From an uncultured Clostridia bacterium (GTDB lineage: Bacteria; Bacillota; Clostridia; TANB77; CAG-508): a stretch of 64,000 nt of DNA. The DNA lies in assembly GCA_947581805.1 (NCBI GenBank), contig CANPVM010000002.1, positions 69,599 through 133,598 on the forward strand, read 5' to 3'. Positions 8,881 through 37,827 of the stretch are shown one piece after another (position 1 is the stretch's first letter; each line of letters opens with the position of its first letter). The notes beneath the pieces were generated by a model that worked only from the letters and a program-made list of their open reading frames with translations, did no database searches and was not told the DNA's origin. The position numbers were made by a program, and so were the translations under genes.

Positions 8881-8940
8881 AAAAAAGAAGGGGTGTCCCC
8901 ACCGTTCCATTTTGGAACGAAAAGGGGCGTCCCTCTTGTT
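8881..8940. repeat. Copy 1 of a dispersed, roughly 58-nt GC-rich structured repeat that acts as a terminator and abuts the ftsH stop codon.
   Basis: Sequence: AAAAAAGAAGGGGTGTCCCCACCGTTCCATTTTGGAACGAAAAGGGGCGTCCCTCTTGTTC. It contains nested palindromes (GGGGTGTCCCC and GTTCCATTTTGGAAC). Read on the minus strand, the hairpins are followed by a U-tract. Confidence 0.7.
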
Positions 8941-10749
8941 CTATTCAAATATTTTTTCAAATTCTTTTTCAGTAATGGTTTCTTGTTTTAATAAGGTTTG
9001 GGCTACTTCGTGAAGTTTATCCATATGTTCTAAAATTAATTTTTGTGCTCTATTATAAGCGTTATCTAATAGGATTTTTACTTCTGCACCAATTGCATCA
9101 GCATATTTTTCCCCTAATAATTGTAATTCATATGGGTCTTTTTCTGTATTGATTGAAATAGTTCCTACTACGTCACTCATTCCATAAACGGTTACCATGT
9201 CTTTAGCAATTTTGGTTGCTACTTCTAAGTCATTGCTTGCTCCTGTGGAAATATCATTTAAAGCAATTTTTTCGGCTGCTCTACCTCCTAAAAGACTAAT
9301 CATTCTTTCTTCCATTTCTGTTTTGGAAATATAGTTTTTATCTTCGTTGGTTTTATACATAGTGTAGCCACCTGCCATACCTCTTGGAATAATTGAAATC
9401 TCTTTTACTGGCTCTTGAGTTTCTAAATACTTACTTACAATAGCGTGTCCAGCTTCATGATAAGCAGTTAACTTTTTATCTTTATCAGAAATGACTCTAC
9501 TTGTTTTTTGAAGTCCTACCGTTACTTTTTTTAATGCTTCTTCGATGTCTTCTTGCTGAATTACATCATGTTCATTAATTGCAGCTAAAATAGCAGCTTC
9601 ATTTAAAATATTGGACAATTCTGCTCCGGTAAAGCCTGCGGTATCTTCTGCAATGGATTTTAGTGTAATATTTTCTGCAAATTTTTTGTCTTTACTATGA
9701 ATTTTTAAAATTTCTTCTCTTCCTTTTAGGTCTGGTACATTAATAGTAATTTGTCTATCAAATCGACCTGGTCTTAATAGAGCTTTATCTAGCATTTCTG
9801 GACGATTGGTAGCAGCTAGTACAATAATTGTTTCTTCTGTATCAAAGCCATCCATTTCTACTAATAATTGATTTAATGTTTGGTTATTTTCTGATTCTGC
9901 TCCATTTCCACTGGATCTTCTAGAACCAATGGCATCTATTTCATCTATGAAAACAATACATGGTGCTACTTTTCTTGCTTTTTCAAATAGTTTACGAACA
10001 CGAGAGGCACCAAGTCCTGCAAACATTTCAATAAATTCAGAACCACTCATGGAAATAAAAGGTACACCTGCTTCTCCTGCAATGGCTTTAGCAATTAATG
10101 TTTTTCCTGTTCCTGGTTTTCCATATAATAAAACACCTTTTGGAATTTTTGCTCCCATTTCATTAAATTTTTTTGGCTCTTTTAAGAATTGTACAATTTC
10201 AAGCATTTCTTGCTTTTCTTCGTCTAACCCTGCTACATCATCAAATTTTACTTTTTGCTTGGAAGCATCTTGGTCATAAACTTTTCCTTTATCGCCTAAT
10301 CCTTGCATTTTAAAAACTAAAATAAATAGAGCAACAATCATTAAGGTTGGAAGTAAAGTGAAAAATGTTTCTGAAATGCTAACTAATACATTTTGTGATT
10401 TTTGATTTAGTTTAAATTCAATACCATCTGCTACTTTTTCTTGTACTAATTCAATAAAGGCTTGTGTACTTGGTATAATCGCCGTTTTTTCTTCTTCTAC
10501 ATTTTTCTGTTTTACTTTTACGGTTGTACTTCCTACAGTCATTTCGATTTTTTCAATTTCACCATCGGAAAGTTGTTTAATTAAATCCGTATAAGCAAGC
10601 TTATCTTCGTTTTCTTCTTCAGCTTCATAGAAAAACAAGAAATAAGTTCCTACTGCTACAGCTACTAATAATAAAATTGTTAACACGCTAAGTACAATCT
10701 TATTGATTTTTTCTTTATTATTCTTTTCTTGTTGTTTGTTATCTTCCAT
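8941..10749 (-). CDS. ftsH: ATP-dependent zinc metalloprotease FtsH.
   Basis: Has an N-terminal TM region, an AAA+ Walker A (GKPGTGKT), the SRH region and the HEAGH zinc motif. Confidence 0.95.
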   Translation of the reverse strand: MEDNKQQEKNNKEKINKIVLSVLTILLLVAVAVGTYFLFFYEAEEENEDKLAYTDLIKQLSDGEIEKIEMTVGSTTVKVKQKNVEEEKTAIIPSTQAFIELVQEKVADGIEFKLNQKSQNVLVSISETFFTLLPTLMIVALFILVFKMQGLGDKGKVYDQDASKQKVKFDDVAGLDEEKQEMLEIVQFLKEPKKFNEMGAKIPKGVLLYGKPGTGKTLIAKAIAGEAGVPFISMSGSEFIEMFAGLGASRVRKLFEKARKVAPCIVFIDEIDAIGSRRSSGNGAESENNQTLNQLLVEMDGFDTEETIIVLAATNRPEMLDKALLRPGRFDRQITINVPDLKGREEILKIHSKDKKFAENITLKSIAEDTAGFTGAELSNILNEAAILAAINEHDVIQQEDIEEALKKVTVGLQKTSRVISDKDKKLTAYHEAGHAIVSKYLETQEPVKEISIIPRGMAGGYTMYKTNEDKNYISKTEMEERMISLLGGRAAEKIALNDISTGASNDLEVATKIAKDMVTVYGMSDVVGTISINTEKDPYELQLLGEKYADAIGAEVKILLDNAYNRAQKLILEHMDKLHEVAQTLLKQETITEKEFEKIFE

Positions 10750-10768
10750 ACTTTTTTATTTCCTTTCT

Positions 10769-11824
10769 TTATGCATTTTCTCCTTGTGGTTCTTGTCCCA
10801 CACCTTTTTCTTTTTCTTTCTCTTTTTCTTCTTTCTTTTCTTTTTTCCTTTGTTCTTCTTTTTCTTTTTCTCTCTTCTTTTCTTGTTTTTCTTCTTCTTC
10901 CTTTTCTTTCTGTCTTTCTAATTCTTCTCGTACTTTTTCTTGTTCTTGCAAGATTTTTGCTAATTCTTTTTGGCTTTTTATGACATCTGATTTTATCATT
11001 AAAATTGCTGTAATTATATAAATATACGCAATTGCAATATACATGATTTGGAAATATTGAATACGCAATGTAGTAAAGGTTTCAATAATTGTTACAAGTG
11101 CATTTAATAAAATTGGCAGAGTTAGACTATGAATGGCAATTTTACACATAGCAGAAAAACGAAGATGTAACCTCATAATTAGTGCTGTAAAGAAACCAAA
11201 TGCCCCTAACAAAATAATATCTAGCCAAATACTAATAAAATATAGGACAAATAAATATAATGCTAGCATTAAGAAGATTCCAATATACATTAAGAACATA
11301 TTGGTTCCTGAAAAGTATTCTAAAACTTGCTGTTTATTAAATTCTGAAATTCCATAAGTTTCTTCCAAAGTATTATAAGGATATTCTACTATTTGCGTTG
11401 CCACTTGTGTTTTTATTAATAGCCTATCTTGTAATAATAAAATTCCATTTTGTGCTTTTTCTAAGACTTCCTTATCCTTTTCTACATTATTTTCTTCTGT
11501 TTGATTTGTATCTATAATAATAGTATCAAAAAAATTATCATTATTTTGTTCTATGATAGCAGAAGATTGTTCTACCTGCAATATACCGTTAGAAAAGGTA
11601 AATTCTGGTATTTCTTCTTTTATATATTGTATTGCTTGCTGTAATTCTTCTGCTACTTTATAAACAGAAGTAAAAGAAATAATAAGTACAAAAATTACAA
11701 GTAATTTTACAAAATATGATAAAACTAAACTCCATTTTTTACTAGCTAATTCTGGATATTTTTCAAAATCTTTGATACTTATAATTAATTTTTTAAAAAA
11801 AGAATCTTCTTTTTCTTCTTTCAT
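10769..11824 (-). CDS. DUF1189-like membrane protein with a long Lys/Glu-rich C-terminal tail.
   Basis: A 351-aa protein with several TM helices, ending in a roughly 60-aa KEKEEEEKQEKKREKEKEE low-complexity tail. Confidence 0.5.
   Translation of the reverse strand: MKEEKEDSFFKKLIISIKDFEKYPELASKKWSLVLSYFVKLLVIFVLIISFTSVYKVAEELQQAIQYIKEEIPEFTFSNGILQVEQSSAIIEQNNDNFFDTIIIDTNQTEENNVEKDKEVLEKAQNGILLLQDRLLIKTQVATQIVEYPYNTLEETYGISEFNKQQVLEYFSGTNMFLMYIGIFLMLALYLFVLYFISIWLDIILLGAFGFFTALIMRLHLRFSAMCKIAIHSLTLPILLNALVTIIETFTTLRIQYFQIMYIAIAYIYIITAILMIKSDVIKSQKELAKILQEQEKVREELERQKEKEEEEKQEKKREKEKEEQRKKEKKEEKEKEKEKGVGQEPQGENA
10790..10960. repeat. Polypyrimidine (plus-strand) low-complexity tract of about 170 nt that encodes the KE-rich tail.
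   Basis: A near-uninterrupted run of C and T bases. It also generates spurious plus-strand ORFs. Confidence 0.8.
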
Positions 11825-11886
11825 CTTTAGCTCTCCTTTTTAGCTCCCTGTTTTTCTTTTTATTCTTATATACTATACTCTCGTTG

Positions 11887-13287
11887 TTAGATAGATTCGA
11901 TAGTCATTCCCTCTTTTGTATCTTTTACTACATAACCTTTTTCTTTTAATTCTTCACGAATGCGATCTGATTCTGCCCAGTCTTTGTTTTCTCTTGCCTT
12001 TTTTCTTTGCTCTACTAAATCTAAAATTTCTTTTGGTAATTCTGTTTTCTTTTGGTTTTCCAAATAACTCTTTGCATTTTTTAAATCTAATCCTAATATT
12101 TTATCAAATTCTAATAGAAGGTCTGCAAATTGTTTTGATTTTACTTCATTACGAACAACTTCCCATACTATTCCCATAGCAAGTGGCATATTTAAATCAT
12201 CATTTACTGCTTCTATAAATTTTCTTTTATATTCTTCAATAGTCTCTTTGTTTACTTCTTGCTCATTTTCACTATGGAATAAATATCCTTCTCTTAAACG
12301 ATTTAAAGCTTTTTGTGAAGATATAGCACTATCAAATGTGAAGTTTAATTTTGTTCTATAGTGTGCTGTATAGCAGAATAATTTGTAGGCAAGTGGTTCA
12401 ATTCCTCTTTTTTGTAATTCATCTAAAGTATAGGTATTTCCTAAACTTTTTGACATTTTTCCACCATCTACCTGTAAAAATTCAACATGCATCCAACGTT
12501 TGGCAGGAATATGTCCTGTACATCCTTTACTTTGTGCAATTTCATTTTCGTGGTGGGTTGGAATATGGTCTACCCCGCCTGTATGAATATCGAATTCATC
12601 TCCTAAATATTTTCTACTCATTGTAGAACATTCTAAATGCCAACCTGGGTACGATAATCCCCATGGGCTTTCCCATTTCATTATATGATTTTCAGGTGCT
12701 TTAATCCATACTGCAAAATCATAAGGATTTCTTTTTTCCTCGTCAACATCAACTCTAGCACCTGCAATTTGCTCATCTAAATTACGATTTGATAATACAG
12801 GATAGTGGTCTAACTTTGAAATGTCAAAATAAAGTCCTTTTGATGTTTCATAAGCATATCCATTTTCTACTAATTTTTTTACAAATTCCAACATATCTGC
12901 AATATGATCTGTTGCTTTTGCAATAATTTCTGGTCTTTCTATATTTAGTCTTCCCATATCTCTAAAAAATATATCGGTATAAAAAGCAGCAATTTCATAA
13001 GGATTTTTATTTTCTTTTTTCGCTGCTTTTTCCATTTTGTCTTCGCCTTCGTCGGCATCTGACTCTAAATGACCTACATCAGTAATATTCATAACATGTT
13101 TTAAGGTATAGCCATTTGCTTTTAAGACTCTTCTTAGCGTGTCCATAAAAACATAGGCTCTAAAGTTGCCAATGTGGGCATAACTGTAAACAGTTGGCCC
13201 ACATGTATATATTCTTACTTCTTTTCCCTCTAATGGAGTAAATTCTTCTTTTTTTCTTGTTAAAGTATTGTATAATGTTAAACTCAT
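11887..13287 (-). CDS. cysS: Cysteine--tRNA ligase.
   Basis: A class I aminoacyl-tRNA synthetase with the HIGN(F)R and KMSKS motifs; the N-terminus 'CGPTVYSYAHIGNFR' is typical of CysRS. Confidence 0.95.
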   Translation of the reverse strand: MSLTLYNTLTRKKEEFTPLEGKEVRIYTCGPTVYSYAHIGNFRAYVFMDTLRRVLKANGYTLKHVMNITDVGHLESDADEGEDKMEKAAKKENKNPYEIAAFYTDIFFRDMGRLNIERPEIIAKATDHIADMLEFVKKLVENGYAYETSKGLYFDISKLDHYPVLSNRNLDEQIAGARVDVDEEKRNPYDFAVWIKAPENHIMKWESPWGLSYPGWHLECSTMSRKYLGDEFDIHTGGVDHIPTHHENEIAQSKGCTGHIPAKRWMHVEFLQVDGGKMSKSLGNTYTLDELQKRGIEPLAYKLFCYTAHYRTKLNFTFDSAISSQKALNRLREGYLFHSENEQEVNKETIEEYKRKFIEAVNDDLNMPLAMGIVWEVVRNEVKSKQFADLLLEFDKILGLDLKNAKSYLENQKKTELPKEILDLVEQRKKARENKDWAESDRIREELKEKGYVVKDTKEGMTIESI

Positions 13288-13352
13288 ATTTTATTCCTCC
13301 CTAGGTACAAGTTTAGTTGAAAAATAATTTTATTTTCTAGTTTTTAATTTTT

Positions 13353-16001
13353 TTATACAACGACATTTGTTTCTGTTGTATTCGTATTTGTTGTATTTGT
13401 AGTTGTAGTTGTATTCGTAGTTGTATTATTATTTACTTCATTTGTAATGGTGTTTTGAGTATTGCCACCTTCTTCTGGCTTCTGTATTTTGTTAACCGTT
13501 AATGTAATTGTAGTTTCTTTCGCTACTTTTTCTTTTGCTTTAATACTTTGTTCTAGTACAATTCCATCTTTCTTCGTTTTGTCTTCTTTATATTTAATAC
13601 TTACTTTTAATCCTTGTTTTTCTAAAGCTTCTTTTGCTTGTTTTAGTGTCATTCCTACTACATTTAATACTTCTACTTTTTCTGGCTCTTTATGTACATC
13701 ACAGGTTTCTTCTGGCATATCATATTTGTCTCCGGCATCTGTAGACCATAAATTTGTATTTTCTTTTTGTGGTTTTACTAAGTAAGTTTTTTCTTCGGTC
13801 TCTTTACAATATTCTGTTGCAATTTTTCCTGTTTGTTTACATATTTTTAATTTGGTATGTCCTTCACATTCTTTTGGAAGAGTTCCTTTTACAAAAACTT
13901 CGGATATGGTTCTAGTACAAGAATCTGTTGCTAAACAACCTGAATCTTCACAAATTTTTGCATAAACAACGTTGCTTGGTCTTTGGAAACGAGCAGTTGG
14001 TAAGTCTTTATGAATATCTTTCATAACAGCTGCCCAAATATTAGCTGCATTATTTGTACTAAATACTGGATTTTCATTATAATCAAATCCAAACCAAACA
14101 GATGCTGTATAATATGGTGTAAAGCCACAAAGCCATCTATCTATGTAATGGTCTGTTGAACCTGTTTTAGCTCCTACGTCCATATTAGACATATAACATA
14201 CTGCTGCTGTTCCACTTCTTGCAGGTGATTTTAATAAATCTTGTAATACATAAGCATTGGCTTGTGACATTACTCTTCTCTTTTCTTGTTTTGATTCTAA
14301 AATGACATTTCCATTAGCATCTTCTACCTTTGTGTAGAAAATAGGGCTAATATATTCTCCATTATTTGCTACTGCTGCATAAGCTGCTGCCATATTAAGC
14401 GGGCTTACATCAGCTGTTCCTAATGCTAATGTAATACTTTCATGTCTACTATCAATTTCAATTCCTAAAGTTGATAAAAATTTAATAGCATTGGCAGGAC
14501 CTATTTCTTTCATAATTTTTAAATGTACAATATTAGAAGATTTTGCCAAAGCTGTTCGAATTGTCATTAACCCATGAAAACCATCTGAATTGTGTGGATT
14601 GCTATAATCTGCTCCAAAGCTAGTAGCAGAATCATCGTATACTGTTCCTGCTGTAATAATTCCGCTTTCTAGAGCTGGTGCTTCACAAGCAAGTGGTTTA
14701 ATAGAAGAACCTGTTTGTTTTCCTCTTAAAGCTCTATTGATACCAGTAGAATTTGAATCACTTCCTAAACCTCCGGCGCAAGCTACTACTTGCCCTGTTT
14801 TATGATCAATAATAACCATTCCTGCTTGCGTATGTGTATTAATTAAATTTCCTTCATCGTCTTTCTTTACACCACTTTTAATATATTTGTCTTTTAAAAA
14901 TTCCTCTTCCATTCTGTTTTGTATTGCTGTATCTTGTGTTGTATATACAGTATATCCATAGTTTTCTACCATAAATTGAGCGGTTTCTCTATTAACTCCT
15001 TTTTCTTCCATTAAGTCTTTAATCACTTGCTCAATAGCAGCTGATGTATGATAAGAATAAGTAATTTTTGAAACATTAGCACCTTGTTTAAATGGAAGAC
15101 CTGCTTCTACTTTTGCTACTGCGGAATTATATTCTTCTTCATTAATCATATTTTGGTCTTTCATTTGGAATAAAACTTCTTTTGTTCTATTAATAATAAG
15201 TTCTCCATTGTCTTCTCCTATAAATGGATTATATCTGCTAGGACCATGATTAATACCTGCTATAAAAGCACATTCTGCTAAATCTAATTCTGCTACTGGT
15301 TTATCAAAATAATATTCTGCTGCCATGCCCACACCATAAATAGTAGAACCCATTGGAATTTTATTTAAGTATAGTTCTAATATTTGATCTTTTGAAATAA
15401 TCTTCTCTAGATTGTAAGCACGTGCCATTTCTCTTATTTTTCTTTCAATTCCTGCTGCACCTTCGTCTGCATCATCATCCATTAAATTTTTAATTAATTG
15501 TTGTGTAATAGTACTTCCTCCACCTGCAGAAGATTCTCCTTTATTAATTGCATACATTACTGTAACATATGCCGTTCTTTTTATATCTATTCCCTTATGT
15601 TCATAAAACCTTTTATCTTCAATAGCAACAAAAGCTTTTGGTAAAAGTGCTGGCATATCAGACAAACTTACAATCTTTCTATTTTCTTTTCCAGATATTG
15701 TTGCAATTACCTCTCCATTTTTATCTTTTACACTACCATTAATTTGTTGAATTAGTAAATCTTCTTGTGTTAGTTTAAATTTATCACTAAAGAAGATACC
15801 TGCAATGATACCTATTCCAATTAAGCATAGTAAAATTCCTAAAACAAAGATAATTAAAATTGCTTTTTTTAGTTTTGGATGTTTTTTCTTTGCTTTTTTC
15901 TCTTTACTTTTTCTATGTATTTTTGTTTTATATTTTTTTGTTTTTTCTGTGTCTTCATAATTTGTTTTTGTTACCTTTTTTTTGCCATTTGATTTATTCA
16001 T
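13353..16001 (-). CDS. Class A penicillin-binding protein (PBP1A-type) with a C-terminal PASTA domain and a Thr/Asn-rich tail.
   Basis: Has the GT51 glycosyltransferase motifs (EDKRFYEHKGID), the transpeptidase SxxK/SxN/KTG motifs, a PASTA-like segment and a low-complexity NNNTTTNTTTTT end. Confidence 0.9.
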   Translation of the reverse strand: MNKSNGKKKVTKTNYEDTEKTKKYKTKIHRKSKEKKAKKKHPKLKKAILIIFVLGILLCLIGIGIIAGIFFSDKFKLTQEDLLIQQINGSVKDKNGEVIATISGKENRKIVSLSDMPALLPKAFVAIEDKRFYEHKGIDIKRTAYVTVMYAINKGESSAGGGSTITQQLIKNLMDDDADEGAAGIERKIREMARAYNLEKIISKDQILELYLNKIPMGSTIYGVGMAAEYYFDKPVAELDLAECAFIAGINHGPSRYNPFIGEDNGELIINRTKEVLFQMKDQNMINEEEYNSAVAKVEAGLPFKQGANVSKITYSYHTSAAIEQVIKDLMEEKGVNRETAQFMVENYGYTVYTTQDTAIQNRMEEEFLKDKYIKSGVKKDDEGNLINTHTQAGMVIIDHKTGQVVACAGGLGSDSNSTGINRALRGKQTGSSIKPLACEAPALESGIITAGTVYDDSATSFGADYSNPHNSDGFHGLMTIRTALAKSSNIVHLKIMKEIGPANAIKFLSTLGIEIDSRHESITLALGTADVSPLNMAAAYAAVANNGEYISPIFYTKVEDANGNVILESKQEKRRVMSQANAYVLQDLLKSPARSGTAAVCYMSNMDVGAKTGSTDHYIDRWLCGFTPYYTASVWFGFDYNENPVFSTNNAANIWAAVMKDIHKDLPTARFQRPSNVVYAKICEDSGCLATDSCTRTISEVFVKGTLPKECEGHTKLKICKQTGKIATEYCKETEEKTYLVKPQKENTNLWSTDAGDKYDMPEETCDVHKEPEKVEVLNVVGMTLKQAKEALEKQGLKVSIKYKEDKTKKDGIVLEQSIKAKEKVAKETTITLTVNKIQKPEEGGNTQNTITNEVNNNTTTNTTTTTNTTNTNTTETNVVV

Positions 16002-21727: not shown

Positions 21728-21916
21728 ATCACCCCTCCTATGGAATTTATCCTTAGTCTTTTTTTCTTTATTATATTGAAAAAAAAGACATAATTCAACA
21801 ATGTTATATAAATGTTATCAAAATGTAATAAATTTGTAATAAAGTAAGCTGAATTGGAACGAGTTCCATACTTTTTGTTTATAATTTTGAAACAGCGAGC
21901 CTAATTCCTACTATAA

Positions 21917-21965
21917 TAAAAAAGAAGGAGAGCTTTGGAGACCTTCCAATTCTTTCCCTCTTTTT
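21917..21965 (-). terminator. Terminator downstream of tmcAL, a degenerate relative of the GC-rich repeat family.
   Basis: It starts AAAAAAGAAGG and ends TCCCTCTTTTT like the repeat copies, but the interior is shortened. On the minus strand it forms the hairpin GAAGG...CCTTC followed by a U-run. Confidence 0.4.
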
Positions 21966-23196
21966 ATAAAATAACTAATTTATTTGTATAGTCTAAATTT
22001 GCCCATGAATCATATTCATACCCTAACGTATAGATATTAGTAGCAAAAATATCTTTTTCTAACATTTCTTTAAGAATTTTATTAGTATTTTGCTCTGTAT
22101 ATTTTTTTACTGAAGTAATCATTTGAATTTTTGGATTAATGTTACAAATATCAGATAACATTTCTTTTCCTTTACTATTAAATCCTAATACTCTTGCATA
22201 TGGTGTTACTTTTTTTGAATTTTGCATATCTTTTTTTGTAATACCAAGTAATGCGTATAATAAAATTCTTTGAATTCTGGTTAAGGTATATCGTTTTGAT
22301 TTTATAATATTAACCAATTCAATTAAACTGTTGCAAGAATCTGCTGCATTTTTAATTGTATTTTCCAATCCTTCTGTAACATCTGCTAGTTCTGCGATTT
22401 CTTTGACTGACATTTTTCTTAATATATATAAAATTTCCTTTTCATATTTTACTAAATCTAAAACATAATTTCCTTTGCGGATTTCTTCTTTTAGTAGCAT
22501 ATAAGAATTTCTTGGCATTACTTTTCTTACATCATCATATTGTTCTGTTGCAACTAATTTGCGTATTGCAGTACTACTTGCAAATTCATCTATAATTTTT
22601 TCATCATTATAAAATACTTTTTTACGTTCTATGGAAAATGGCTTTATTTCACTTTTTAGTCTTTTTAATGCTTTCAAATATTCAATTGCTAATATATTGT
22701 TAGAACCTGACATAATATTAGCATAACGTTTAATATCATTTAAATACATAAGTAATGCATTTTCTCTTGCTTTTGGATATGATAAGCCTTTTCCTAGTTC
22801 ATGATTTAAAATTGCAACATATTCTTTTGGTTCATTATATAAAACGTTAGCAATATTATTTAATGCAGCAAAATCCGCTGTTTCAGAGCCAAAACATAAA
22901 GTATCTACTATTTTTAAACTCTCTAAAACTTTTATTGCTCCTTCTGCAAAATTTTCTGCGCTAGAAATGCTATATACTGTAGGAAGTTCTAATACAATAT
23001 CAACCCCATTTTCTAATGCCATTTGTGCTTTTACCCATTTGTTAATTAAAGAAGTGTTGCCTCTTTGTGTAAAGTTACCTGTCATAATTGCTACAACATA
23101 CTGTGCGCCTGTTTGCTTTTTTGCTTCTTCTATTTGGTATAAGTGTCCATTATGAAATGGATTGTATTCTGCTATAATACCTAGAACCGTTGCCAT
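21964..23196 (-). CDS. tmcAL: tRNA(Met) cytidine acetate ligase (TmcAL, YlbM/UPF0348 family).
   Basis: Has the N-terminal nucleotidyltransferase motif 'GIIAEYNPFHNGHLY'. The RBS GAGGGG sits before the ATG of 'MATVLG'. Confidence 0.8.
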   Translation of the reverse strand: MATVLGIIAEYNPFHNGHLYQIEEAKKQTGAQYVVAIMTGNFTQRGNTSLINKWVKAQMALENGVDIVLELPTVYSISSAENFAEGAIKVLESLKIVDTLCFGSETADFAALNNIANVLYNEPKEYVAILNHELGKGLSYPKARENALLMYLNDIKRYANIMSGSNNILAIEYLKALKRLKSEIKPFSIERKKVFYNDEKIIDEFASSTAIRKLVATEQYDDVRKVMPRNSYMLLKEEIRKGNYVLDLVKYEKEILYILRKMSVKEIAELADVTEGLENTIKNAADSCNSLIELVNIIKSKRYTLTRIQRILLYALLGITKKDMQNSKKVTPYARVLGFNSKGKEMLSDICNINPKIQMITSVKKYTEQNTNKILKEMLEKDIFATNIYTLGYEYDSWANLDYTNKLVIL

Positions 23197-24823: not shown

Positions 24824-24937
24824 AGTTGCCTCCTTATAAAAAACGTAATTTACGTTGTAACAATTGTATTTTATAACTTTATGCTTATTTTGTCAATTTT
24901 TTATGTGCAAAGTTAGCTTACTGTATAATAATTATTT

Positions 24938-25000
24938 AAAAAATGAGGGGTGTCCCCACCGTTCCAAAATGGAACGAAAAGGGGCGTCCCTCTTGTTCTT
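24938..25000. repeat. Copy 2 of the roughly 58-nt GC-rich structured repeat, abutting the stop codon of the class B PBP gene.
   Basis: Near-identical to copy 1, except that the loop of the central hairpin is inverted (GTTCCAAAATGGAAC instead of GTTCCATTTTGGAAC). Confidence 0.7.
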
Positions 25001-25002: not shown

Positions 25003-27039
25003 TTAGATTTCTTCATAAATTGTTTTTATTTTATCAAGTAAATAATGGCTTCCGCCTCTTTCTTTTACATCTTCTACCATACTAATGATTAACATTTCTC
25101 TTTTTCCATTTACTAAAAAACTATCAAACCAGCCAATTTCAGTACCTTGTGTGTCATCTTTTGAAGCTTTTATTTCTGCTGTTCCTGTTTTTCCTGCTAT
25201 GGTTAGTCCATCTATTTTAACACTATGGGCTGTTCCATTTGGATTTTCTACTACTTGAATTAAACTATCTTTAATGGTATTTGCTGTTTCTTTATTAAAG
25301 GCTTGTTTTTTATAATAAGTAGACGTGCTATTTTCTTTGTATTCTAAATATGGCATTACCATATCTCCCTCATTTGCAAAACTTGAATAAAGCATTGCCA
25401 TATGAATTGGATTTACTAACATTTCTGCTTGCCCATAGCCACTATTTGCTAGTTGTTTTTCACTTGTTATGGTATCAGAATTAGCATAAGAAGATGATTC
25501 CATTTCTTGTACAAATTCTATTTTTTGTTTGAAACCTAACTCTTTTAAACTTTTTACAAAATTTTCTATTCCGATTTTTAATGCTGCTTTTGCAAAATAA
25601 ATATTATCAGAATAAACAAGTGCATTATTTAAATTTTGCTCTCCTGCATAGGTAGTTAAAGTAGAAATGTAAAAATCTCCCCAACTATTATCCTTTTGCC
25701 ATTTATTGGTGCTTGTTCCAAAACTTTCTTCTTTGGTAAAACTACCTAAGTTTAAGCCTATAGCACCTGTAATTGGCTTCATAGAAGAACCTGGTGCATA
25801 GCTTGCTAAATATCTGTTGTAAAAAGGTTTTTCTTCATCTTGAGATAATGCATTCCATTTATTTGTTGTCATTCCTAAACTAAAGTCGTTAGAATCAAAA
25901 GTAGGTGTACTAACTAAAGCTAAAATTTCACCTGTTTTTGGATTCATTGCTACATGAGCACTTTTATCTTCTTTAAATTGTTCATATAAAGCCTCTTGCA
26001 AATTACTATCAATGGTTAGTTTAATATCTTCTCCATTTTTTGCCTCTTTCTTTGCAATGGTCTTTATTTTTTCTCCTTCACCATTGATAATATAAATTTC
26101 TGCTCCATCTATTGCTCTTAAACGGTTTTCATATATTTTTTCTAAACCAGATTTTCCTATTTTGCTATATTCATTATAGCCCTCGCCTTTCTTTTCTTTT
26201 AATTCTTCCTGACTAATACCTTGTATATAGCCAAGAAGATGAGAAGTAGCTTCTCCCAGTGGATAAATTCTTTCTTCGGTATCGATAATTTTAATTCCTT
26301 TTATTTCTAATAATTGGTTTTTTAAGGCTTGCTCTGTTTTTCTAATGGTTCTTAAAGGAACAAATGTGTCTTCTCCTACATAGGAAGCAGATAAGCTACT
26401 ATGGATACTTTCACTAGAAATATCTAAAAGCTCTGCCACCTTTGCAATATCTTGTTCTTTGGTATCGCTATTCATCTTACCTGGTACGAACCCAACTTGT
26501 GAAGCAGTTTGTTTTCCTGCTAAAATAGTGCCATTTCGAGCTAATATTTTGCCCCTATCTGCTTCTATCGTTTCTACTCTTACTTTATAATTGTTTTCTA
26601 ATTCTGGAAAAATGTCATTAGAAGACCAATCTAATTTGTAATCTTCATCCTCTTTTGTAAAATAGCTTGTATTCGAAAAATTGATTTCTCCAGCTACTGT
26701 TTGCATAGTTACTTGATAGATTACTTCTGCAGTTTTCTCTTTTTTATTTGTTTTTACTACATGAATATTCAAGTCACTGATTTCAATTCCTTCATAAATA
26801 TTTTTGTTACGAGAAAGATAAGTTTCTTTTTCTACTTCTTGCTTTGTTTTACTACTTAATAATTCGTACATACCTTCATAGTTTTGTTCTAATATGTATG
26901 ACATATAGGTTGTTAAAGTAGACTCTGGTGTATTGGTTGATTTTTTTCTTACAAAACATAGTAAAAGAATACCAATTATTAAAATTAGTATAAAAAATAA
27001 GATAATTTTGCTTTTCTTATTATTTTGTTTTTTCTTCAT
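25003..27039 (-). CDS. Class B penicillin-binding protein (transpeptidase) with an NTF2-like MecA_N-type N-terminal domain.
   Basis: Has the SxxK motif (GSSMKP), SDN and KTGT. There is an N-terminal TM anchor; 678 aa. Confidence 0.85.
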   Translation of the reverse strand: MKKKQNNKKSKIILFFILILIIGILLLCFVRKKSTNTPESTLTTYMSYILEQNYEGMYELLSSKTKQEVEKETYLSRNKNIYEGIEISDLNIHVVKTNKKEKTAEVIYQVTMQTVAGEINFSNTSYFTKEDEDYKLDWSSNDIFPELENNYKVRVETIEADRGKILARNGTILAGKQTASQVGFVPGKMNSDTKEQDIAKVAELLDISSESIHSSLSASYVGEDTFVPLRTIRKTEQALKNQLLEIKGIKIIDTEERIYPLGEATSHLLGYIQGISQEELKEKKGEGYNEYSKIGKSGLEKIYENRLRAIDGAEIYIINGEGEKIKTIAKKEAKNGEDIKLTIDSNLQEALYEQFKEDKSAHVAMNPKTGEILALVSTPTFDSNDFSLGMTTNKWNALSQDEEKPFYNRYLASYAPGSSMKPITGAIGLNLGSFTKEESFGTSTNKWQKDNSWGDFYISTLTTYAGEQNLNNALVYSDNIYFAKAALKIGIENFVKSLKELGFKQKIEFVQEMESSSYANSDTITSEKQLANSGYGQAEMLVNPIHMAMLYSSFANEGDMVMPYLEYKENSTSTYYKKQAFNKETANTIKDSLIQVVENPNGTAHSVKIDGLTIAGKTGTAEIKASKDDTQGTEIGWFDSFLVNGKREMLIISMVEDVKERGGSHYLLDKIKTIYEEI

Positions 27040-32540: not shown

Positions 32541-32669
32541 ATAATAATACCTCTTTCTTAATATTTTTTAACATTATACAATAGGTTTTATTATTTGTCA
32601 AACATTTGTTTTATATTAATATTAATTTTGCTTGCATAATTGATAAATGGTATTTTCGTACTATACTAT

Positions 32670-33221
32670 TTATAAGTAGCTTACAATATCTTCAAAAGTA
32701 TCATATCCACTTTCACTATTGATATGTCCTGCATTTTGAACTAAAATTTGCTTTGTTGCAATAGTATCTGCAAAATCCTTTTCTACTTCATATTTTACAT
32801 ATGGATCATTATCTGAATAAAAACAGATAATATCATTTGCATATTGTTTTACATCTTCCAAGTTATCAAAATACATTGTTCTATTAACATTATCATATTC
32901 TTCATTTATTCCTAGATAATTATTAAATCCACATACAAATATTAATTTTTTAACTTTTACTTTATTTTCAGTTAGAAATTTTGATATAAATATCGGTGCA
33001 ATACTATGAGCAATAATAGTAGTATTTTCATTGATTAAACCTAAATCTAGATAGTTTTTTAGTAATTTACTCCAATTTTCATAATTTTGATAACCTACTC
33101 CTATTGGGAAATGTGGCACATATACTTGTTTCCCTTCATCTTCTATAAAATCATGTAACCAACTAAACCAATTTTCAAATGGACTTCCAAAACTTCCATG
33201 TATTATAAAATAATTTTCCAT
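32670..33221 (-). CDS. Alpha/beta-fold serine hydrolase (YdeN/RBBP9-like).
   Basis: 'IIHGSFGSP', 'AHSIA' (GxSxG-like) and a His near the C-terminus; 183 aa. Confidence 0.5.
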   Translation of the reverse strand: MENYFIIHGSFGSPFENWFSWLHDFIEDEGKQVYVPHFPIGVGYQNYENWSKLLKNYLDLGLINENTTIIAHSIAPIFISKFLTENKVKVKKLIFVCGFNNYLGINEEYDNVNRTMYFDNLEDVKQYANDIICFYSDNDPYVKYEVEKDFADTIATKQILVQNAGHINSESGYDTFEDIVSYL

Positions 33222-33271
33222 TTATATTTACCTCCTAAAAAAATTATTTAATCTTTTAAAATAGTTAGATA

Positions 33272-33895
33272 TTATTTTTCAATTTCATTTTTATATTCAC
33301 TTCTATATTGTTCATATTTAGCTTTTGCCCTTGGCAGTCCTGCATCAACTGCCATTTTTAAATAATATTCTGATAGCCTTAAATTTCTCTCTGTTCCAAC
33401 TCCATTATAATAAAAATTTGCTCCTAAATCATATATTGCAGGAAGATGTCCTTGCATCGCACAATCATGTATTAAATCAAATGCTTTATTCTTATCTATT
33501 TCAACTTCACCAAAACCAAAATAGTAATATGCTCCTAGGCAAAACTTTGAAAATGCTTGTTTTCTTAAATTTTGTTTTTCCTCTTCTATAAGTTTTAATA
33601 ATGATTTGTATGCTTGAATATGTATCTGTTTTGCTTTTTCTTTATCTTGTTCAACTCCATCTCCAAAATAATAACAAGCACCTACTCCATATGCAGAGCG
33701 AGGATCTCCTAACTCTTTTCCTCTTTCATACCAGTACATTGCTTTTTCAAAGTTTTGCTCTGCTCCGTTTTCTTCACTATCATAACTTCTACCTAAAATA
33801 TAACATGCTAGTTTATCTCCTTCTCTAGCTTTAATTTCTAATTCACTTAAATCAAATATCATCGGTTTTATAATATTACTCATTTTTAGTTTCAC
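33272..33895 (-). CDS. Sel1-repeat (TPR-like) protein.
   Basis: Repeated A/GxxYxxG motifs such as 'GVGACYYFGDGVEQDKEKA'. Confidence 0.65.
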   Translation of the reverse strand: MKLKMSNIIKPMIFDLSELEIKAREGDKLACYILGRSYDSEENGAEQNFEKAMYWYERGKELGDPRSAYGVGACYYFGDGVEQDKEKAKQIHIQAYKSLLKLIEEEKQNLRKQAFSKFCLGAYYYFGFGEVEIDKNKAFDLIHDCAMQGHLPAIYDLGANFYYNGVGTERNLRLSEYYLKMAVDAGLPRAKAKYEQYRSEYKNEIEK

Positions 33896-34511
33896 CTAAT
33901 TTCTTTAATAAAATATATCTTTTTATATTTTCATCTTTTTGATACCATGTCTGTTCTTCATATCCTAAATCTTTTAAATTTCTTAAACTATAAACATTTC
34001 CAAACGTTACTTCTGCAATAATATTATTTATACCTTTTTCTCTAGCCCTTTCTTCAAGATATTTTATTAATGTTTTTTGTAACCCATATCCTCTATATTC
34101 TGGTAATACAATAACTCCGTCTATATCAGCACATTTTCCTTTTAAATTTGGAATCTTTTGTTTTAATTCTTTCATTCTATTAGAAACTGAAAGAAAAATC
34201 CAAGCAACCATTTTATTATCTATAAAGGCGCCATATATTTCACCATCTTTTATAGGGTTATTCAATATTCTTAAATATATTTCCTTTGTAAAAGGTAAAA
34301 AATAGCCTTTTTCATCTTCTTTAAAATTATCTATTACAATATTTTCAATATTACATATTTCATCAACATCTTTTTCAGTACATTTTCTTATTTTTATATT
34401 ATTAACATCTGCTTGATTTTTTTGGACTTTTTCAGTTGACTCATTATTTTTATCAAATATATCTATATATTCCATAATATTACTCCTCAATTTTGTTAGT
34501 TTTTTTAACAA
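33876..34511 (-). CDS. GNAT-family N-acetyltransferase.
   Basis: Motif A 'VLPEYRGYGLQKTLIKYLEERAREKGI'. Confidence 0.7.
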   Translation of the reverse strand: MLKKLTKLRSNIMEYIDIFDKNNESTEKVQKNQADVNNIKIRKCTEKDVDEICNIENIVIDNFKEDEKGYFLPFTKEIYLRILNNPIKDGEIYGAFIDNKMVAWIFLSVSNRMKELKQKIPNLKGKCADIDGVIVLPEYRGYGLQKTLIKYLEERAREKGINNIIAEVTFGNVYSLRNLKDLGYEEQTWYQKDENIKRYILLKKLGETKNE

Positions 34512-34585
34512 TATTTAAATCAATATAATTATTATATTTTATATCACAAATTTTATTAATAACTGCTTTATTTTGTAAAATATTA

Positions 34586-35950
34586 TTATGTCAATTCTTT
34601 CAAAGATAGCACTGCAACGCACTCCACATGGCTCGTAAATGGAAACATATCTACCGGTTGTATTTCATTTACTTCATATTTTTCTTCTAATAATTTCATG
34701 TCTCTTACCATAGTCGCTGGATTGCAACTAATGTAAACTACTTTTTTAGGTTCTACTGCTAAAATATTGTTAATTGTGGTATTGTCTAATCCTTTTCGTG
34801 GTGGGTCTACCATAACAACATCTGGATAAACTTGTTTCTTTTCTATCAAATTCGTTAAAACTTTTTCAACATCTCCTGCTATAAATTCAATATTTTCTAT
34901 TTGGTTAATTCTTGCATTTTCTTTGGCATCATAGATAGCTTGTTCTACAATTTCCACTCCATAAACTTTTTTCACATAAGAAGAAGCAAAAATTCCAATG
35001 GTGCCTATACCGCAATATAAGTCAAATAAAATATCCTCTTTGCTTAAATTTGCCATTTCAATTGCTATATTATATAGAACTTCGGCTTGCACAGGGTTTA
35101 CTTGGTAAAAAGACATAGGAGAAATTTTAAAGGTATAATCTCCTAAAATATCGTAAATATATCCATCTCCGTGAAGCACTATATTTTCTTCTCCTAAAAT
35201 AACATTGGTATTTTTTGTGTTGATATTTTTTACAACCGTCTTTACATTATAACGTTTTACTAGCATTTCTACTAATTCTTGCTCATATGGAATTTTATTT
35301 CCATTGACAACTAAAATACACATAATTTCATGCGTGCGAATTCCTACTTTTATTACAATATGACGAAGCAATCCCTCTCTTGTTTCTTCATTATAAACAG
35401 AAATATCTTTTTCTATGATAAATTTTTGAATAGCAAATGCTATTTCTTGTGACATGGTATTTTGAAGGAAACAATCTTGCATTGGAATAATTTCATGAGT
35501 TCTTTTTGCAAATACACCAACTACTTTTTCGTTTTGTTTATTTATTCCTACTGGAAATTGTGCTTTGTTACGATAATGATAAGGATTTCCCATTCCAATA
35601 GTTGGCTTTACCTTCACATTTTTATTTAAAGTTTTGCTTACTAAATTTTGCACCATATTTTGCTTAATGTTTAGTGTTTCTTCATAGTCGATATGGCGAA
35701 GACTACAACCTCCACATCTTTGATAAGTAGCACAATCACTTTCTATGCGATAAGGAGATTGTTCTATAATTTCTAGCAGTTTTCCATAAGCATAAGAAGA
35801 TAACACTTTTACAATTAGAATTTTTACTTTTTCACCTTTCATGGCATTTGGAATAAAAACAGTAAAATTTTCTATTTTTGCAATGCCTTCTCCTTCCATT
35901 CCATAATCGATAATATTTACAATATATTCCTCATTTTTCTTAATTTCCAT
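34586..35950 (-). CDS. rlmD: 23S rRNA (uracil-C5)-methyltransferase of the RlmD/RumA type.
   Basis: Has an N-terminal TRAM domain, an Fe-S Cys cluster (CGGCSLRH) and the SAM-binding MTase motifs DLYCGIGTIG and the PPR region. Confidence 0.85.
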   Translation of the reverse strand: MEIKKNEEYIVNIIDYGMEGEGIAKIENFTVFIPNAMKGEKVKILIVKVLSSYAYGKLLEIIEQSPYRIESDCATYQRCGGCSLRHIDYEETLNIKQNMVQNLVSKTLNKNVKVKPTIGMGNPYHYRNKAQFPVGINKQNEKVVGVFAKRTHEIIPMQDCFLQNTMSQEIAFAIQKFIIEKDISVYNEETREGLLRHIVIKVGIRTHEIMCILVVNGNKIPYEQELVEMLVKRYNVKTVVKNINTKNTNVILGEENIVLHGDGYIYDILGDYTFKISPMSFYQVNPVQAEVLYNIAIEMANLSKEDILFDLYCGIGTIGIFASSYVKKVYGVEIVEQAIYDAKENARINQIENIEFIAGDVEKVLTNLIEKKQVYPDVVMVDPPRKGLDNTTINNILAVEPKKVVYISCNPATMVRDMKLLEEKYEVNEIQPVDMFPFTSHVECVAVLSLKELT

Positions 35951-36009
35951 ATTAAAATCCTTTCAAAATAATAAAAGCAAGGTAATACCTTGCTTTTATT
36001 ATATACAAC

Positions 36010-36396
36010 CTATTCTGTTTTTTCAATATTTTTTTCACTCTTCTTTGCAATTCCTAATCTGTAACATCCTACAATTGCAAATATAAAAAATGAAATGCAG
36101 AAAATAGTAATAAGCATAGACTTTGTTTCTTTATTTTGATATATCATTAAGAAACTGGTCATTGCAACGCCGCCAGAACTTGTACATATTGCATCTAAAA
36201 TATTGTCTTTTACATTTTCTTTGAGAATAGCATTCCAAACTGCTTCAATTACCACCATAAATATAACCCAATACATAAGTATGGTTATGACGACAATTGG
36301 AAAGCTTAAAGAAATTTTAGTTTTAATCCATACTTCTAAAAGTATTGCCAATACTAATCCAACAATTGTGCAACATAAGCTTTTCCGGTTTACCAT
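36010..36396 (-). CDS. Hypothetical membrane protein (128 aa, four TM helices).
   Basis: Called on hydrophobicity profile only. Confidence 0.35.
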   Translation of the reverse strand: MVNRKSLCCTIVGLVLAILLEVWIKTKISLSFPIVVITILMYWVIFMVVIEAVWNAILKENVKDNILDAICTSSGGVAMTSFLMIYQNKETKSMLITIFCISFFIFAIVGCYRLGIAKKSEKNIEKTE

Positions 36397-36502
36397 ATTT
36401 TTTCCTCCTACAAATTATTGTTTTGAGTGGTTAATACAAAAACTTACTTTTTTATTATACGCTTTTTGTTGATTTATATCAATCTTTTTATATACTATTA
36501 TT

Positions 36503-36548
36503 AGTAATATAAACAAATGAAGCCACAAAATATTGTGACTTCATTTGT
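36503..36548 (-). terminator. Rho-independent terminator of the SCIFF gene.
   Basis: On the minus strand: CAAATGAAGTCACAA-TATTTT-GTGGCTTCATTTG followed by TTTATATT. Confidence 0.55.
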
Positions 36549-36568
36549 TGTTTTAGAACAAAAATGTG

Positions 36569-36712
36569 TTACTGCTTCTTTTCACAGGTCTGATTGCCTA
36601 CTGTGCAAGAAGTTTTACATGCAGATTGGCAAGATGTTTGACACTCGCCACAGCCACCTTTTTTCATAGATTCTTTCCAATCTCTGGTAGCTAACGTCTT
36701 TACATGTTTCAC
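36569..36712 (-). CDS. scfA: SCIFF ('six cysteines in forty-five residues') ranthipeptide precursor, 47 aa.
   Basis: Translation: MKHVKTLATRDWKESMKKGGCGECQTSCQSACKTSCTVGNQTCEKKQ. A GTG start with GGAGG 7 nt upstream. The ORF is under 60 aa so it is absent from the ORF track. It matches the conserved GGCGECQTSCQSACKTSCTVGNQ core. Confidence 0.85.
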   Translation of the reverse strand: MKHVKTLATRDWKESMKKGGCGECQTSCQSACKTSCTVGNQTCEKKQ

Positions 36713-36817
36713 TTTCTGTTCCCTCCTTTCTTAAGGTAAAACAACAGTATGATTTGGTTACTCTTTTATTATAATTGAATTTTAAGAATTAGTAAATATA
36801 AAAATTAAAAAACACCA

Positions 36818-37648
36818 TTATATATTGGTGTTTCTTGTTATTTCTCTCTCTTTATTTAATAATGCTTTCATTCTTGATTTTGCATCTATTTTACTTTTAT
36901 GCTCAAAAGTTTTAAAACGATTTGGATTAGTATCATAAACTAATTCTATATTAGGCAAATATTTTTTCTTGGTAAATGCTTTTTTATTAAAAATAGAAAG
37001 CAATTTATTTTTCATTTTATCAAAAATTGTTTCTTCTATTTTTAATAATGCTGTTACTTTCCTTTCTGAAAATACTTTTAAACTGTTTTCGTCAGATACT
37101 ACATAATATTCATCATATTGTTCCATTTGCACTGTTTTGCCTTCTTCTAGTTTTTCACAAATAGCTTGAATCATATCAACACGACTAAATTTTCTAGGTT
37201 CATATTTAATTACTTTTTCAGGATTTACATCATTTACACCAAATAAACATACAAATTTGCCATCATATATACAAATTTTATCCATATAATTTTCTTGCTC
37301 TTCTAAGTGAGTACCTACATCTGCAATTTCTAGTTTCTCTATTTCGAAATTTTCAACTTCAGCTAAACATGGACATACTACTTCTAATAATACTTTTGAT
37401 TTTATTTTATCAAATTTAGCATCATTAAAAAGCCTATCTTCTAAAGAATTTTCGACATATTTTAAATAATTATTATCTACTTCTTCTTTAGATACAGCTT
37501 CTTTAACATCTGTATGTAAACTAATAGCATCTGACATTTTCTTAATTTTTTCCAAAATACTGTCAAATTCTTCTTTTCTGGTCTTTGTTACTTTTTCAAT
37601 TTCATTTGTTTCTGTTATTTTCTTCTCTTCTTCGTTCATTTTTTTCAC
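36818..37648 (-). CDS. Hypothetical acidic protein (276 aa).
   Basis: An ORF with no recognisable radical-SAM or other signature motif. Confidence 0.4.
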   Translation of the reverse strand: MKKMNEEEKKITETNEIEKVTKTRKEEFDSILEKIKKMSDAISLHTDVKEAVSKEEVDNNYLKYVENSLEDRLFNDAKFDKIKSKVLLEVVCPCLAEVENFEIEKLEIADVGTHLEEQENYMDKICIYDGKFVCLFGVNDVNPEKVIKYEPRKFSRVDMIQAICEKLEEGKTVQMEQYDEYYVVSDENSLKVFSERKVTALLKIEETIFDKMKNKLLSIFNKKAFTKKKYLPNIELVYDTNPNRFKTFEHKSKIDAKSRMKALLNKEREITRNTNI

Positions 37649-37763
37649 CTTTATTTTTTAAATGCTTTTATATTATAGCATTAAATAAAAAAAAGTGTGT
37701 TACTGTTTCTTTACTTTTGTATTACAATTTTATGACACTATATAAGGCTCTTTCATTATCAAT

Positions 37764-37827
37764 AAAAAAAGAAGGGGTGTCCCCAACGTTCCATTTTGGA
37801 ACGAAAAGGGGCGTCCCTTCTGTTCAA
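37764..37827. repeat. Copy 3 of the roughly 58-nt GC-rich structured repeat, abutting the ppdK stop codon.
   Basis: AAAAAAGAAGGGGTGTCCCCAACGTTCCATTTTGGAACGAAAAGGGGCGTCCCTTCTGTTC; differs from copy 1 at only a few positions. Confidence 0.7.

Follow-up and report, generated by a model that had tools for sequence, protein, structure and literature searches.

A stop-codon-adjacent palindromic repeat family in uncultured Clostridia, with a candidate transposase and a predicted role in transcription termination

Three genes in a 64,000-nt stretch of an uncultured Clostridia bacterium (the whole stretch is called the window below, and labels of L plus a number denote loci of other genomes) are followed by near-identical copies of a GC-rich palindromic element: ftsH, a gene for a class B penicillin-binding protein (PBP), and ppdK, which encodes pyruvate phosphate dikinase (PPDK). 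We consider it likely that these copies represent a non-autonomous element of about 62 nt, of the REP/TIRYT type (REP, repetitive extragenic palindromic), that is spread by a Y1 HUH transposase and acts as a portable terminator. The copies belong to a dispersed family with definable boundaries that sits at stop codons and is polymorphic for insertion among relatives, and in related genomes a gene of the RAYT (REP-associated tyrosine transposase) class is flanked by repeats that co-vary with it. Judging from anatomy and position, the element most likely serves the upstream gene as an intrinsic terminator and as a protective hairpin at the 3' end of its mRNA.

Anatomy and placement of the element

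A 44-nt core pattern, with up to three mismatches allowed, matched the window exactly three times, always on the plus strand (8890-8933, 24947-24990 and 37774-37817, with 0, 3 and 1 mismatches), and 100 shuffles of the sequence indicated that no match would be expected by chance. A repeat finder grouped the identical three copies (family D4), and the core is 61% GC in a window of 29%. An earlier note on this DNA had described three near-identical GC-rich copies in one orientation, each adjoining the stop codon of a minus-strand gene. Both statements hold: the right border (..TGTTC) overlaps the ftsH stop codon by 1 nt and lies 4 nt from that of the PBP gene and 2 nt from that of ppdK. The copies, with parts given on the plus strand, their host genes and one look-alike are as follows.

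8880..8941, minus strand: element copy 1, 3' of ftsH (covariance model, 89.7 bits); A-tract 8880-8889, G-box1 GGGGTGTCCCC 8890-8900, inner hairpin 8903-8919 with loop TTT, G-box2 GGGGCGTCCC 8924-8933, TCTTGTTC 8934-8941; the final C is base 1 of the ftsH stop codon (cta = TAG)
24937..24998, minus strand: element copy 2, 3' of the class B PBP gene (88.7 bits); A-tract 24937-24946, G-box1 24947-24957, inner hairpin 24960-24976 with loop AAA (flipped), G-box2 24981-24990, TCTTGTTC 24991-24998; PBP stop codon TAA at 25003-25005
37764..37825, minus strand: element copy 3, 3' of ppdK (90.5 bits); A-tract 37764-37773, G-box1 37774-37784, inner hairpin 37787-37803 with loop TTT, G-box2 37808-37817, TTCTGTTC 37818-37825; ppdK stop codon TAA at 37828-37830
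8941..10749, minus strand: ftsH, 602 aa, identity confirmed by Pfam; its stop codon overlaps the end of copy 1
25003..27039, minus strand: class B PBP gene, 678 aa, Pfam MecA_N, PBP_dimer and transpeptidase domains
37828..40653, minus strand: ppdK, 941 aa, identity confirmed by Pfam
21915..21969, minus strand: ordinary terminator (hairpin and U-tract) of a tmcAL-like gene, not a member of the element family (12 bits, E 0.23)

The last of these had been put forward in the earlier note as a degenerate relative (21917-21965), which our data do not support: genuine copies score 88-90 bits, and the stretch falls below even an ordinary terminator at 41630-41675 (16.9 bits), sharing with the element only the generic design of A-tract, GC stem and T-tract.

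The consensus of 68 distinct related-genome copies, aligned on the core, reads AAAAAAAGAA - GGGGTGTCCCC - ACC - GTTCCA - TTT or AAA - TGGAAC - GAAAA - GGGGCGTCCC - TCCT - GTTC, so that the two G-boxes enclose a 7-bp inner hairpin and the element closes with TCCTGTTC. The right border, after TGTTC, is sharp in this alignment and the A-rich left border fuzzier. Each G-box together with its following GTTC forms a direct repeat of 18 nt (14 of 18 positions identical), and each G-box is a near-palindrome by itself, hence the two boxes can also pair with each other; the units nonetheless match better as direct than as inverted repeats. The basic unit is 34 nt long and the usual element comprises 1.5 units, while one copy (L003:5016-5105) has 2.5, and the gene-proximal end is often partly duplicated in tandem; both features point to slippage between the two units of G-box and GTTC, which are repeated directly. 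An attenuator-like switch, in which GAAC after the stop codon would pair with GUUC of the inner stem, was considered and not adopted: the alternative helix is only 4 bp long in the main subfamily, and tandem units of 34 nt (2.5 of them in L003) explain the direct repeat more simply. Some 20-25 nt to the left of the A-tract, four copies at different loci (L050, L074, L065 and L049) share an extra stretch, GAGAACTTTCCTACTATAT, and the element may thus have a longer form or another repeat attached to it.

In the sense of the upstream gene, the RNA of each window copy forms a single extended hairpin that joins the two G-rich boxes by pairing, has a folding energy of -27 to -29 kcal/mol (z -3.4 to -5.0) and runs into a U-tract, UUCUUUUUU or UCAUUUUUU. 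The hairpin and U-tract reported in the earlier note are therefore present, and its nested palindromes apply to single-stranded DNA, whose minimum-energy fold under DNA parameters is three small hairpins, but not to the RNA. The A-tract that supplies the uridines travels with the element: among the 10 nt that precede G-box1, 7 or more are A in 73% of the copies next to stop codons and also in half of those that are inverted, compared with 6% of background 10-mers. In the alignment of 78 copies, four pairs of the inner helix have compensatory changes, all of them from subfamily switches. Since covariation is confined to this helix, the G-boxes are conserved as sequence and the inner hairpin as structure. 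Assigning the functional strand from the asymmetry of G.U and A.C pairs was indecisive, with the G-box helix favoring the plus strand and the outer AGGA/UUCU extension favoring the gene-sense strand.

Placement relative to genes is strongly biased. Of the 74 copies with a definable neighbor, 65 have their TGTTC end towards the stop codon of a gene on the opposite strand. G-box2 is mostly 6-19 nt away from that stop codon, which puts the element end at 0-11 nt from it, a distance seen in about 85% of the family copies. When orthologous loci were grouped by hand, about 31 of some 42 independent main-subfamily sites lay within 33 nt of a stop codon. The commonest class, TAG|AACAGGA, comprises 12 copies at no fewer than six independent sites; TGA|ACAGGA was also found, and both classes involve an overlap of stop codon and element. 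Two groups have the stop codon within the TCCT/TACT block (d = -1 or 0), and at least seven independent sites use a TAG, TGA or TAA of the element itself as the stop codon of the gene. Convergent gene pairs follow the same rule, always with the TGTTC end near a stop codon and the other gene 30-1179 nt away.

The predicted terminator role follows from this arrangement, in which a copy stands directly after a stop codon and is oriented so that the mRNA would end in a long GC-rich hairpin and the element's own U-tract. The layout of an intrinsic terminator (GC hairpin plus U-tract in the upstream gene's sense, near the stop codon) was present in all three window copies, and at least 7 of 10 positions are U in 48 of 66 stop-adjacent copies. 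Once inserted, such a copy would thus end the mRNA of the upstream gene.

Distribution, empty sites and variation of the family

A covariance model (R1) built from 69 copies recovered 78 sense-strand copies in 536 kb (the window and related loci), nearly always 3' of a gene in one orientation, in line with the further copies anticipated by the earlier note. G-box 10-mers were confined to such elements. When a single genome of each species was scanned for two G-boxes separated by 18-34 nt of any sequence, at least 102 stretches matched; those in GC-rich genomes are chance matches, and those in AT-rich genomes come from a narrow set, among the matches listed. Four rabbit-gut metagenome-assembled genomes (MAGs) of 'uncultured Clostridia' (CANQFS, CANQTK, CANQXD and CANRLO) contain the family at 8-17 or more loci each, and window DNA is 84-97% identical to loci of these four. 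Three 'Clostridium sp.' MAGs have identical G-boxes with the inner palindrome and the last block swapped together (ATGGCAA / TTGCCA / ATGGCAA in one, TAATCCCC / GGGA / TAATCCC in another); in the third (UMGS1476; L080) G-box units are instead arrayed in tandem, repeating about every 21 nt. The two-G-box pattern was matched neither in viral contigs nor in two scans of metagenome contigs from JGI, which suggests that, within the collections searched, the family is limited to a small number of gut MAG lineages. Rfam 15 had no match at gathering score over the whole window, with only noise at E<10 around copy 1, and a literature search on the G-box strings returned only unrelated eukaryotic or other papers.

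Two subfamilies coexist in one genome, since at L041:330-420 a copy of the second type (GGGGTGTCCC AAATGGCAA TTTA TTGCCA AAAAA GAGCGTCC AAATGGCA) lies directly beside the main-type ppdK copy. This second, TGGCAA-type copy near ppdK is a remnant in L086 (~5900-5960) and absent from the window (~37750). Tandem arrays of units resembling G-boxes, with a period of 15 nt (GGGGTGTCCCCTTTA GGAGCGTCCCCCTTA GGGGCGTCCC), also occur at many loci (L015, L021, L023, L040, L046, L047 and L051) of a Planctomycetales MAG of 58% GC, CAZAPM.

Insertion polymorphism among relatives, as the earlier note had envisaged, is clearest at the PBP site, where contigs of PBP homologues found by protein search were graded by protein identity. 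At 90-92% identity (L102 and L104) the element is present, with its loop flipped in L104. At 83% (L105, from the MAG CANQTK) a different hairpin repeat takes its place, although many family copies occur elsewhere in that MAG; the L105 repeat (10318-10470) consists of two inverted arms, GAACCTGTTTTTGGGGACGGAGGAAAAAAACAGGT, each displaying a G-rich box in its loop, and abuts the stop codons of two convergent genes. Five relatives at 74-80% identity (L106-L110) have an empty site, at which the -35 box of the promoter serving the next gene includes the PBP stop codon, TGA. In the window that promoter is 113 nt further on, and the insert, whose first bases are TAAAAAAGAAC, begins precisely where the stop codon stood; 42 additional nt that came in with the element have no repeat elsewhere and are unique to the locus. 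The promoter, near-consensus in the window (24868-24896, minus strand; TTGACA, 17 nt, TAAAAT), belongs to a small 54-aa gene downstream of the PBP gene.

The expansion of the element is specific to the sub-lineage of the window, as 113 kb from relatives L105-L110 held no canonical copy and one related perfect palindrome. That palindrome, of 70 nt (AGGCGAACGCAAGGGACGGTCCTTTATGTTCCGA AAT ...; L106:1309-1378), fills the whole gap of a convergent gene pair and matches the variant that flanks that sample's own RAYT gene (L112). In a species that is 72% identical, the ftsH orthologue likewise lacks the element, and a different long palindrome follows it. Copies are also found within genes: in L075 a TGGCAA-type copy lies in frame within tilS, where it splits the PP-loop domain match, and in L014 the reading frame of a 516-aa membrane protein runs on through the element, which supplies the final 24 residues. 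Target-site duplications were not found in flank-to-flank local alignments (mean z 0.3, with only 1 of 77 above z 3).

The inner loop occurs in two states. That of copy 2, AAAAT, is the exact reverse complement of ATTTT in copies 1 and 3, as the earlier note had observed, and its proposal of a flip at a palindromic stem is well supported: the family-wide census is near-equal (ATTTT in 34 copies, AAAAT in 29), and both states turn up within 4 of about 17 groups of orthologues, as they do at the site upstream of the RAYT gene. Inversion of the 3-nt loop across a perfect 6-bp palindromic stem, or conversion between copies, would produce this dimorphism.

A candidate transposase gene flanked by the repeat

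Local tblastn with IS200 and RAYT sequences gave weak matches at two related loci, L075 and L076, and profile scores point to a transposase of the Y1 family at both (cut-offs: 23 bits for Pfam Y1_Tnp and 80 bits for NCBIfam REP_Tyr_transpos, 'REP-associated tyrosine transposase').

L076, 4302-5066: open reading frame (ORF) of 254 aa; Y1_Tnp 44.6 bits, REP_Tyr_transpos 77.5 bits (E 9e-22), IS200 21 bits
L075: ORF of 265 aa; Y1_Tnp 43.8 bits, REP_Tyr_transpos 66.3 bits, IS200 16 bits

The homologue search returned 1057 relatives. An alignment of 34 family members has invariant H60, H62, Y120, N124 and P125, corresponding to the HuH and Y---NP motifs. The protein is 250-265 aa long, and its C-terminal 30-40 residues give only sub-threshold matches to helix-turn-helix (HTH) domains (E 2e-4 to 8e-3). 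A single-sequence search of the PDB with the transposase found no match; with the family profile, which was needed here, the best match was 4ER8 (E. coli TnpA_REP), ahead of ISDra2 TnpA.

Inverted copies of the repeat flank this gene on both sides in L076, L111, L112, L113, L115-L117 and L075, always in one geometry, with the G-box1/A-tract ends facing the transposase gene and the TGTTC ends pointing outward. The flanking copies are of the main subfamily in L076 (4241-4308 and 5147-5214) and of the TGGCAA type in L075 (4591-4655 and 5750-5814). In four further species or samples (five with L076), orthologues with 61-96% identity stand in the same place, with an ABC-F gene on one side and tex on the other; this synteny is kept in L076, L111, L112, L113 and L115, and the L075 gene lies between other genes. 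In each species the flanking repeats are its own co-varying variant, with G-boxes GGAGTGTCCC and GGACCGTCCC and GTTCCGAATTCGGAAC between them in L112, and inner sequences GGTCG and GGACCG in L113. A 96%-identical protein comes from the same two metagenome assemblies as the exact FtsH of the window, and several of its contigs break off within the flanking repeats.

Dispersal is probably due to a presumably single-copy Y1 HUH tyrosine transposase of the RAYT/TnpA_REP class whose own gene is flanked by inverted copies and which, by analogy with E. coli TnpA_REP, would mobilize the copies as single-stranded DNA. The invariant G-boxes (GGGGACAC on the gene-sense strand, fitting the GGGGWSAS motif of TIRYT-flanking repeats) are most likely the part that the enzyme would recognize, and the inner hairpin would need only to pair.

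Several further features of these loci deserve mention. Two short contigs (L118 and L119, 918 and 856 nt) hold the RAYT gene only and end inside the flanking repeats on both sides; the repeat family breaks short-read assemblies. Four species share a conserved box, ATAGGGGC(A/G)TAAAT, some 20-30 nt upstream of the RAYT start codon (L076:5075-5110, L111:2960-2990, L112:2960-2990 and L115:1960-1990); it shares GGGGCGT with G-box2 and could be an operator or part of a promoter. In L115 (2759-3588) an acetyltransferase gene flanked by two direct element copies lies between the RAYT gene and tex, and the equivalent spot in L076 (4241-4308) has a single element copy and no such gene, a difference that looks like gain or loss by recombination between copies.

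Two other repetitive features were seen in the window. A low-complexity tandem region rich in CTT/CTTTTT (10707-10947) surrounds the start of the ftsH ORF and also spans the 3' end of the upstream DUF1189 gene (10769-11824), for which it would encode a Lys/Glu-rich tail. Direct repeats of 84 nt (40810-40893 and 41231-41314, 76% identical) each span a ribosome-binding site (RBS) and the start of a small plus-strand ORF (MAKK...GRLTIP), and the two ORFs look like paralogous AbrB/SpoVT-like genes.

Known systems and competing explanations

REP/RAYT systems have been characterized almost entirely in Proteobacteria. RAYT genes are single-copy, vertically inherited and flanked by a repeat that is dispersed in the genome (PMC5581495, PMC6006769). 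The Clostridia family shares much with these REP/REPIN and RAYT 'REPtrons' of E. coli and Pseudomonas (PMC3333891, PMC5581495, PMC6006769): the repeats are likewise short, palindromic, high-copy and mostly placed just 3' of genes, the RAYT gene stands in conserved synteny between inverted copies of the dispersed repeat, and the protein carries HuH and Y---NP, the signature of class 2 (TnpA_REP-like) proteins (PMC6006769), with E. coli TnpA_REP as its closest solved relative. It differs in having 1.5 copies of a 34-nt direct unit rather than two inverted REPs, in carrying its own A/U-tract, in its AT-rich Clostridia host and in the extra C-terminal region of the protein, which is HTH-like by its sub-threshold matches. 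Nor does it have the architecture of CGTC-tagged REPs, which combine an unpaired terminal CGTC/TGTC tag, an 8-9 bp stem starting with A/T, a loop of 4-5 nt and a CCA tail (PMC3733652); here CGTC/TGTC lies inside the G-boxes, the 7-bp stem starts with C-G, the loop is 3 nt long and there is no CCA tail.

The description of TIRtrons appears to fit better than that of a canonical REP, as judged from the repeats and the protein sequence. In these systems RAYT-like TIRYT genes are flanked by inverted repeats sharing GGGGWSAS, some of which form moderately abundant families, with examples in Stenotrophomonas maltophilia and Koribacter (Di Nocera et al., PMC3733652). G-box1 upstream of our transposase reads GGGGACAC on the sense strand, and downstream it does so on the opposite strand, fitting GGGGWSAS, or GGGG[AT][CG]A[CG]; as in TIRtrons, the GGGGACAC end faces the gene and the flanking repeats belong to a dispersed family. 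Most TIRYTs fall in subclass 2.1, whose members have a C-terminal HTH and are reported to have no REP-like hairpins near their genes (Quentin et al., PMC6006769). By description the Clostridia protein resembles this subclass, being longer than RAYTs and ending in a putative HTH-like region (sub-threshold matches), but its flanking repeats are strong hairpins, abundant and almost always adjacent to stop codons. Neither Di Nocera et al. (PMC3733652) nor Quentin et al. (PMC6006769) mention Firmicutes repeats. Group 1 RAYTs occur in Clostridia too, with few flanking 16-mer repeats (Bertels et al., PMC5581495), and we found no description in the literature of repeats belonging to Clostridia RAYTs.

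Other repeats resemble the family in single respects. Rickettsia palindromic elements (RPE) and intragenic REPs (PMC3733652) are likewise tolerated in frame, as in tilS of L075 and the protein tail of L014, whereas most copies here are extragenic; RPE and CGTC repeats have been reported without a dedicated transposase (PMC3733652), and the Clostridia family has one. Repeat-derived terminators such as the inverted DNA-uptake sequences of Neisseria and Haemophilus (cited in PMC2267715) also place a repeated hairpin at the ends of many unrelated genes, but the present element is transposase-associated rather than an uptake signal and its hairpin is much longer (~50 nt). Stem-loop repeat families in Clostridium genomes are known in general (PMC2267715).

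The earlier note's suggestion of a REP- or MITE-like mobile terminator module (MITE being short for miniature inverted-repeat transposable element) draws support from the dispersed family, the empty sites and the transposase gene between inverted copies. Several observations weigh against a transposase-spread terminator. On the side of the enzyme, no RAYT gene lies in the window, so that its presence in this organism rests on shared metagenome samples, the best NCBIfam REP_Tyr_transpos score (77.5) is just under the cut-off of 80, and mobilization is argued by analogy. Neither end of the consensus has GTAG or GTGG, and the element is therefore not a canonical REP, lacking the GT[AG]G guide tetranucleotide. 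On the side of termination, which anatomy and position would predict in cells, about a quarter of stop-adjacent copies have no good U-tract. Six independent sites within operons have the opposite orientation, with the TGTTC end directly upstream of the next RBS, where copies cannot be terminators because of this position. The G-box helix has no compensatory change, its variants in the alignment being broken pairs in degenerate copies, and three of its pairs are A.C mismatches on gene-sense RNA. Almost every window gene is on the minus strand, identified by GC skew as the leading strand, and by the same measure 60 copies are oriented one way relative to replication and 14 the other; gene-linked and replication-linked orientation are confounded because 10 of these 14 are also inverted relative to genes.

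Some of these points would suit purely selfish REP-like DNA that has no terminator role and survives only where it is harmless, just after stop codons; such sites would be harmless because the short intergenic remainder is filled with promoters and RBSs and deletion bias trims the spacer. Copies are indeed packed tight against gene signals at both ends (stop codon, RBS, promoter) and tolerated inside ORFs, about 25% of them have no U-tract, and in relatives with an empty PBP site no terminator of any kind separates the PBP gene from the next promoter, suggesting that none is 'needed'. Yet this explanation, which seems to us unlikely, does not predict the near-uniform orientation in convergent gene pairs or an A/U-tract that travels with the element, and a hairpin this stable (-27 to -29 kcal/mol) with six U behind it would be expected to terminate transcription whatever its origin. 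The earlier note had also raised a conserved 3' untranslated region (UTR) RNA with a function of its own, such as a protein-binding site or a 3'-derived small RNA, whose conservation would reflect that role. Neither is needed to explain the data. The idea would accommodate G-boxes that are invariant without covariation, as in a protein-contacted motif, an inner helix that covaries between subfamilies, and the likelihood, from position, that most copies are transcribed within the upstream mRNA. It is made quite improbable by the lack of an Rfam match, by a loop that flips freely between AAA and UUU although it is the most exposed part, by copies in either orientation to genes and inside ORFs, and by a G-box motif that flanks a transposase gene in a DNA-level inverted arrangement and matches that of TIRYT repeats (PMC3733652).

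Small size, inverted symmetry and insertion polymorphism would also be expected of a classical MITE that descends from an insertion sequence of the DDE-transposase kind and has terminal inverted repeats together with target-site duplications. We regard this origin as very improbable, given that no direct duplications flank the copies, that units of G-box and GTTC match better as direct than as inverted repeats, and that the only transposase-like gene found beside copies encodes a Y1 HUH protein. A double-stranded DNA site for a host protein, for instance a parS-like or DNA-uptake-type signal, would fit the sequence-invariant G-boxes, and there is a likeness between the inner palindrome, GTTCCA-N3-TGGAAC, and the half-sites of Bacillus parS, TGTTCCACGTGAAACA. 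The spacing of the palindrome is one base off that of parS and the central CG is absent, however, other subfamilies swap the inner palindrome (TGGCAA, TCCCC, GGTCC) while keeping the architecture, and strict placement at gene 3' ends would not be expected, so that such a site is hardly credible. Likeness to parS, LexA (Cheo box), cre and attC was rejected on the same grounds, namely spacing or sequence and the swapped inner palindrome.

With a mobile terminator as our preferred explanation, the placement at stop codons could reflect selection together with deletion bias or a targeting mechanism, and both fit the data. A tentative extension, which we hold with considerable doubt, is that the RAYT/TIRYT system may deliver a ready-made terminator cassette to the stop-codon position specifically, and that the GGGGWSAS G-box may be a common recognition motif of HTH-bearing Y1 transposases across phyla. 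The first part is prompted by the insert at the PBP site, which starts at the relatives' stop position, by the stop codons that the element supplies and by the read-through tail in L014; the second is prompted by the tandem G-box arrays of the Planctomycetales MAG. If true, this would imply either that insertion is targeted to the 3' ends of genes or that a transposase has been domesticated to provide and replenish terminators.

To our knowledge, a REP/TIR (terminal inverted repeat) family with a cognate tyrosine transposase has not been described before in this lineage. It offers a clean case in which the transposase gene stands in fixed synteny and its flanking repeats co-evolve with it across species, while in one sub-lineage the repeat has expanded to dozens of stop-codon copies that resemble terminators. 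The family also explains why transposase-bearing contigs end inside repeats. It may be used to study how such enzymes choose their sites and how selfish repeats turn into parts of gene expression, and to gauge what share of the 'terminator' repertoire of AT-rich gut bacteria is derived from repeats.

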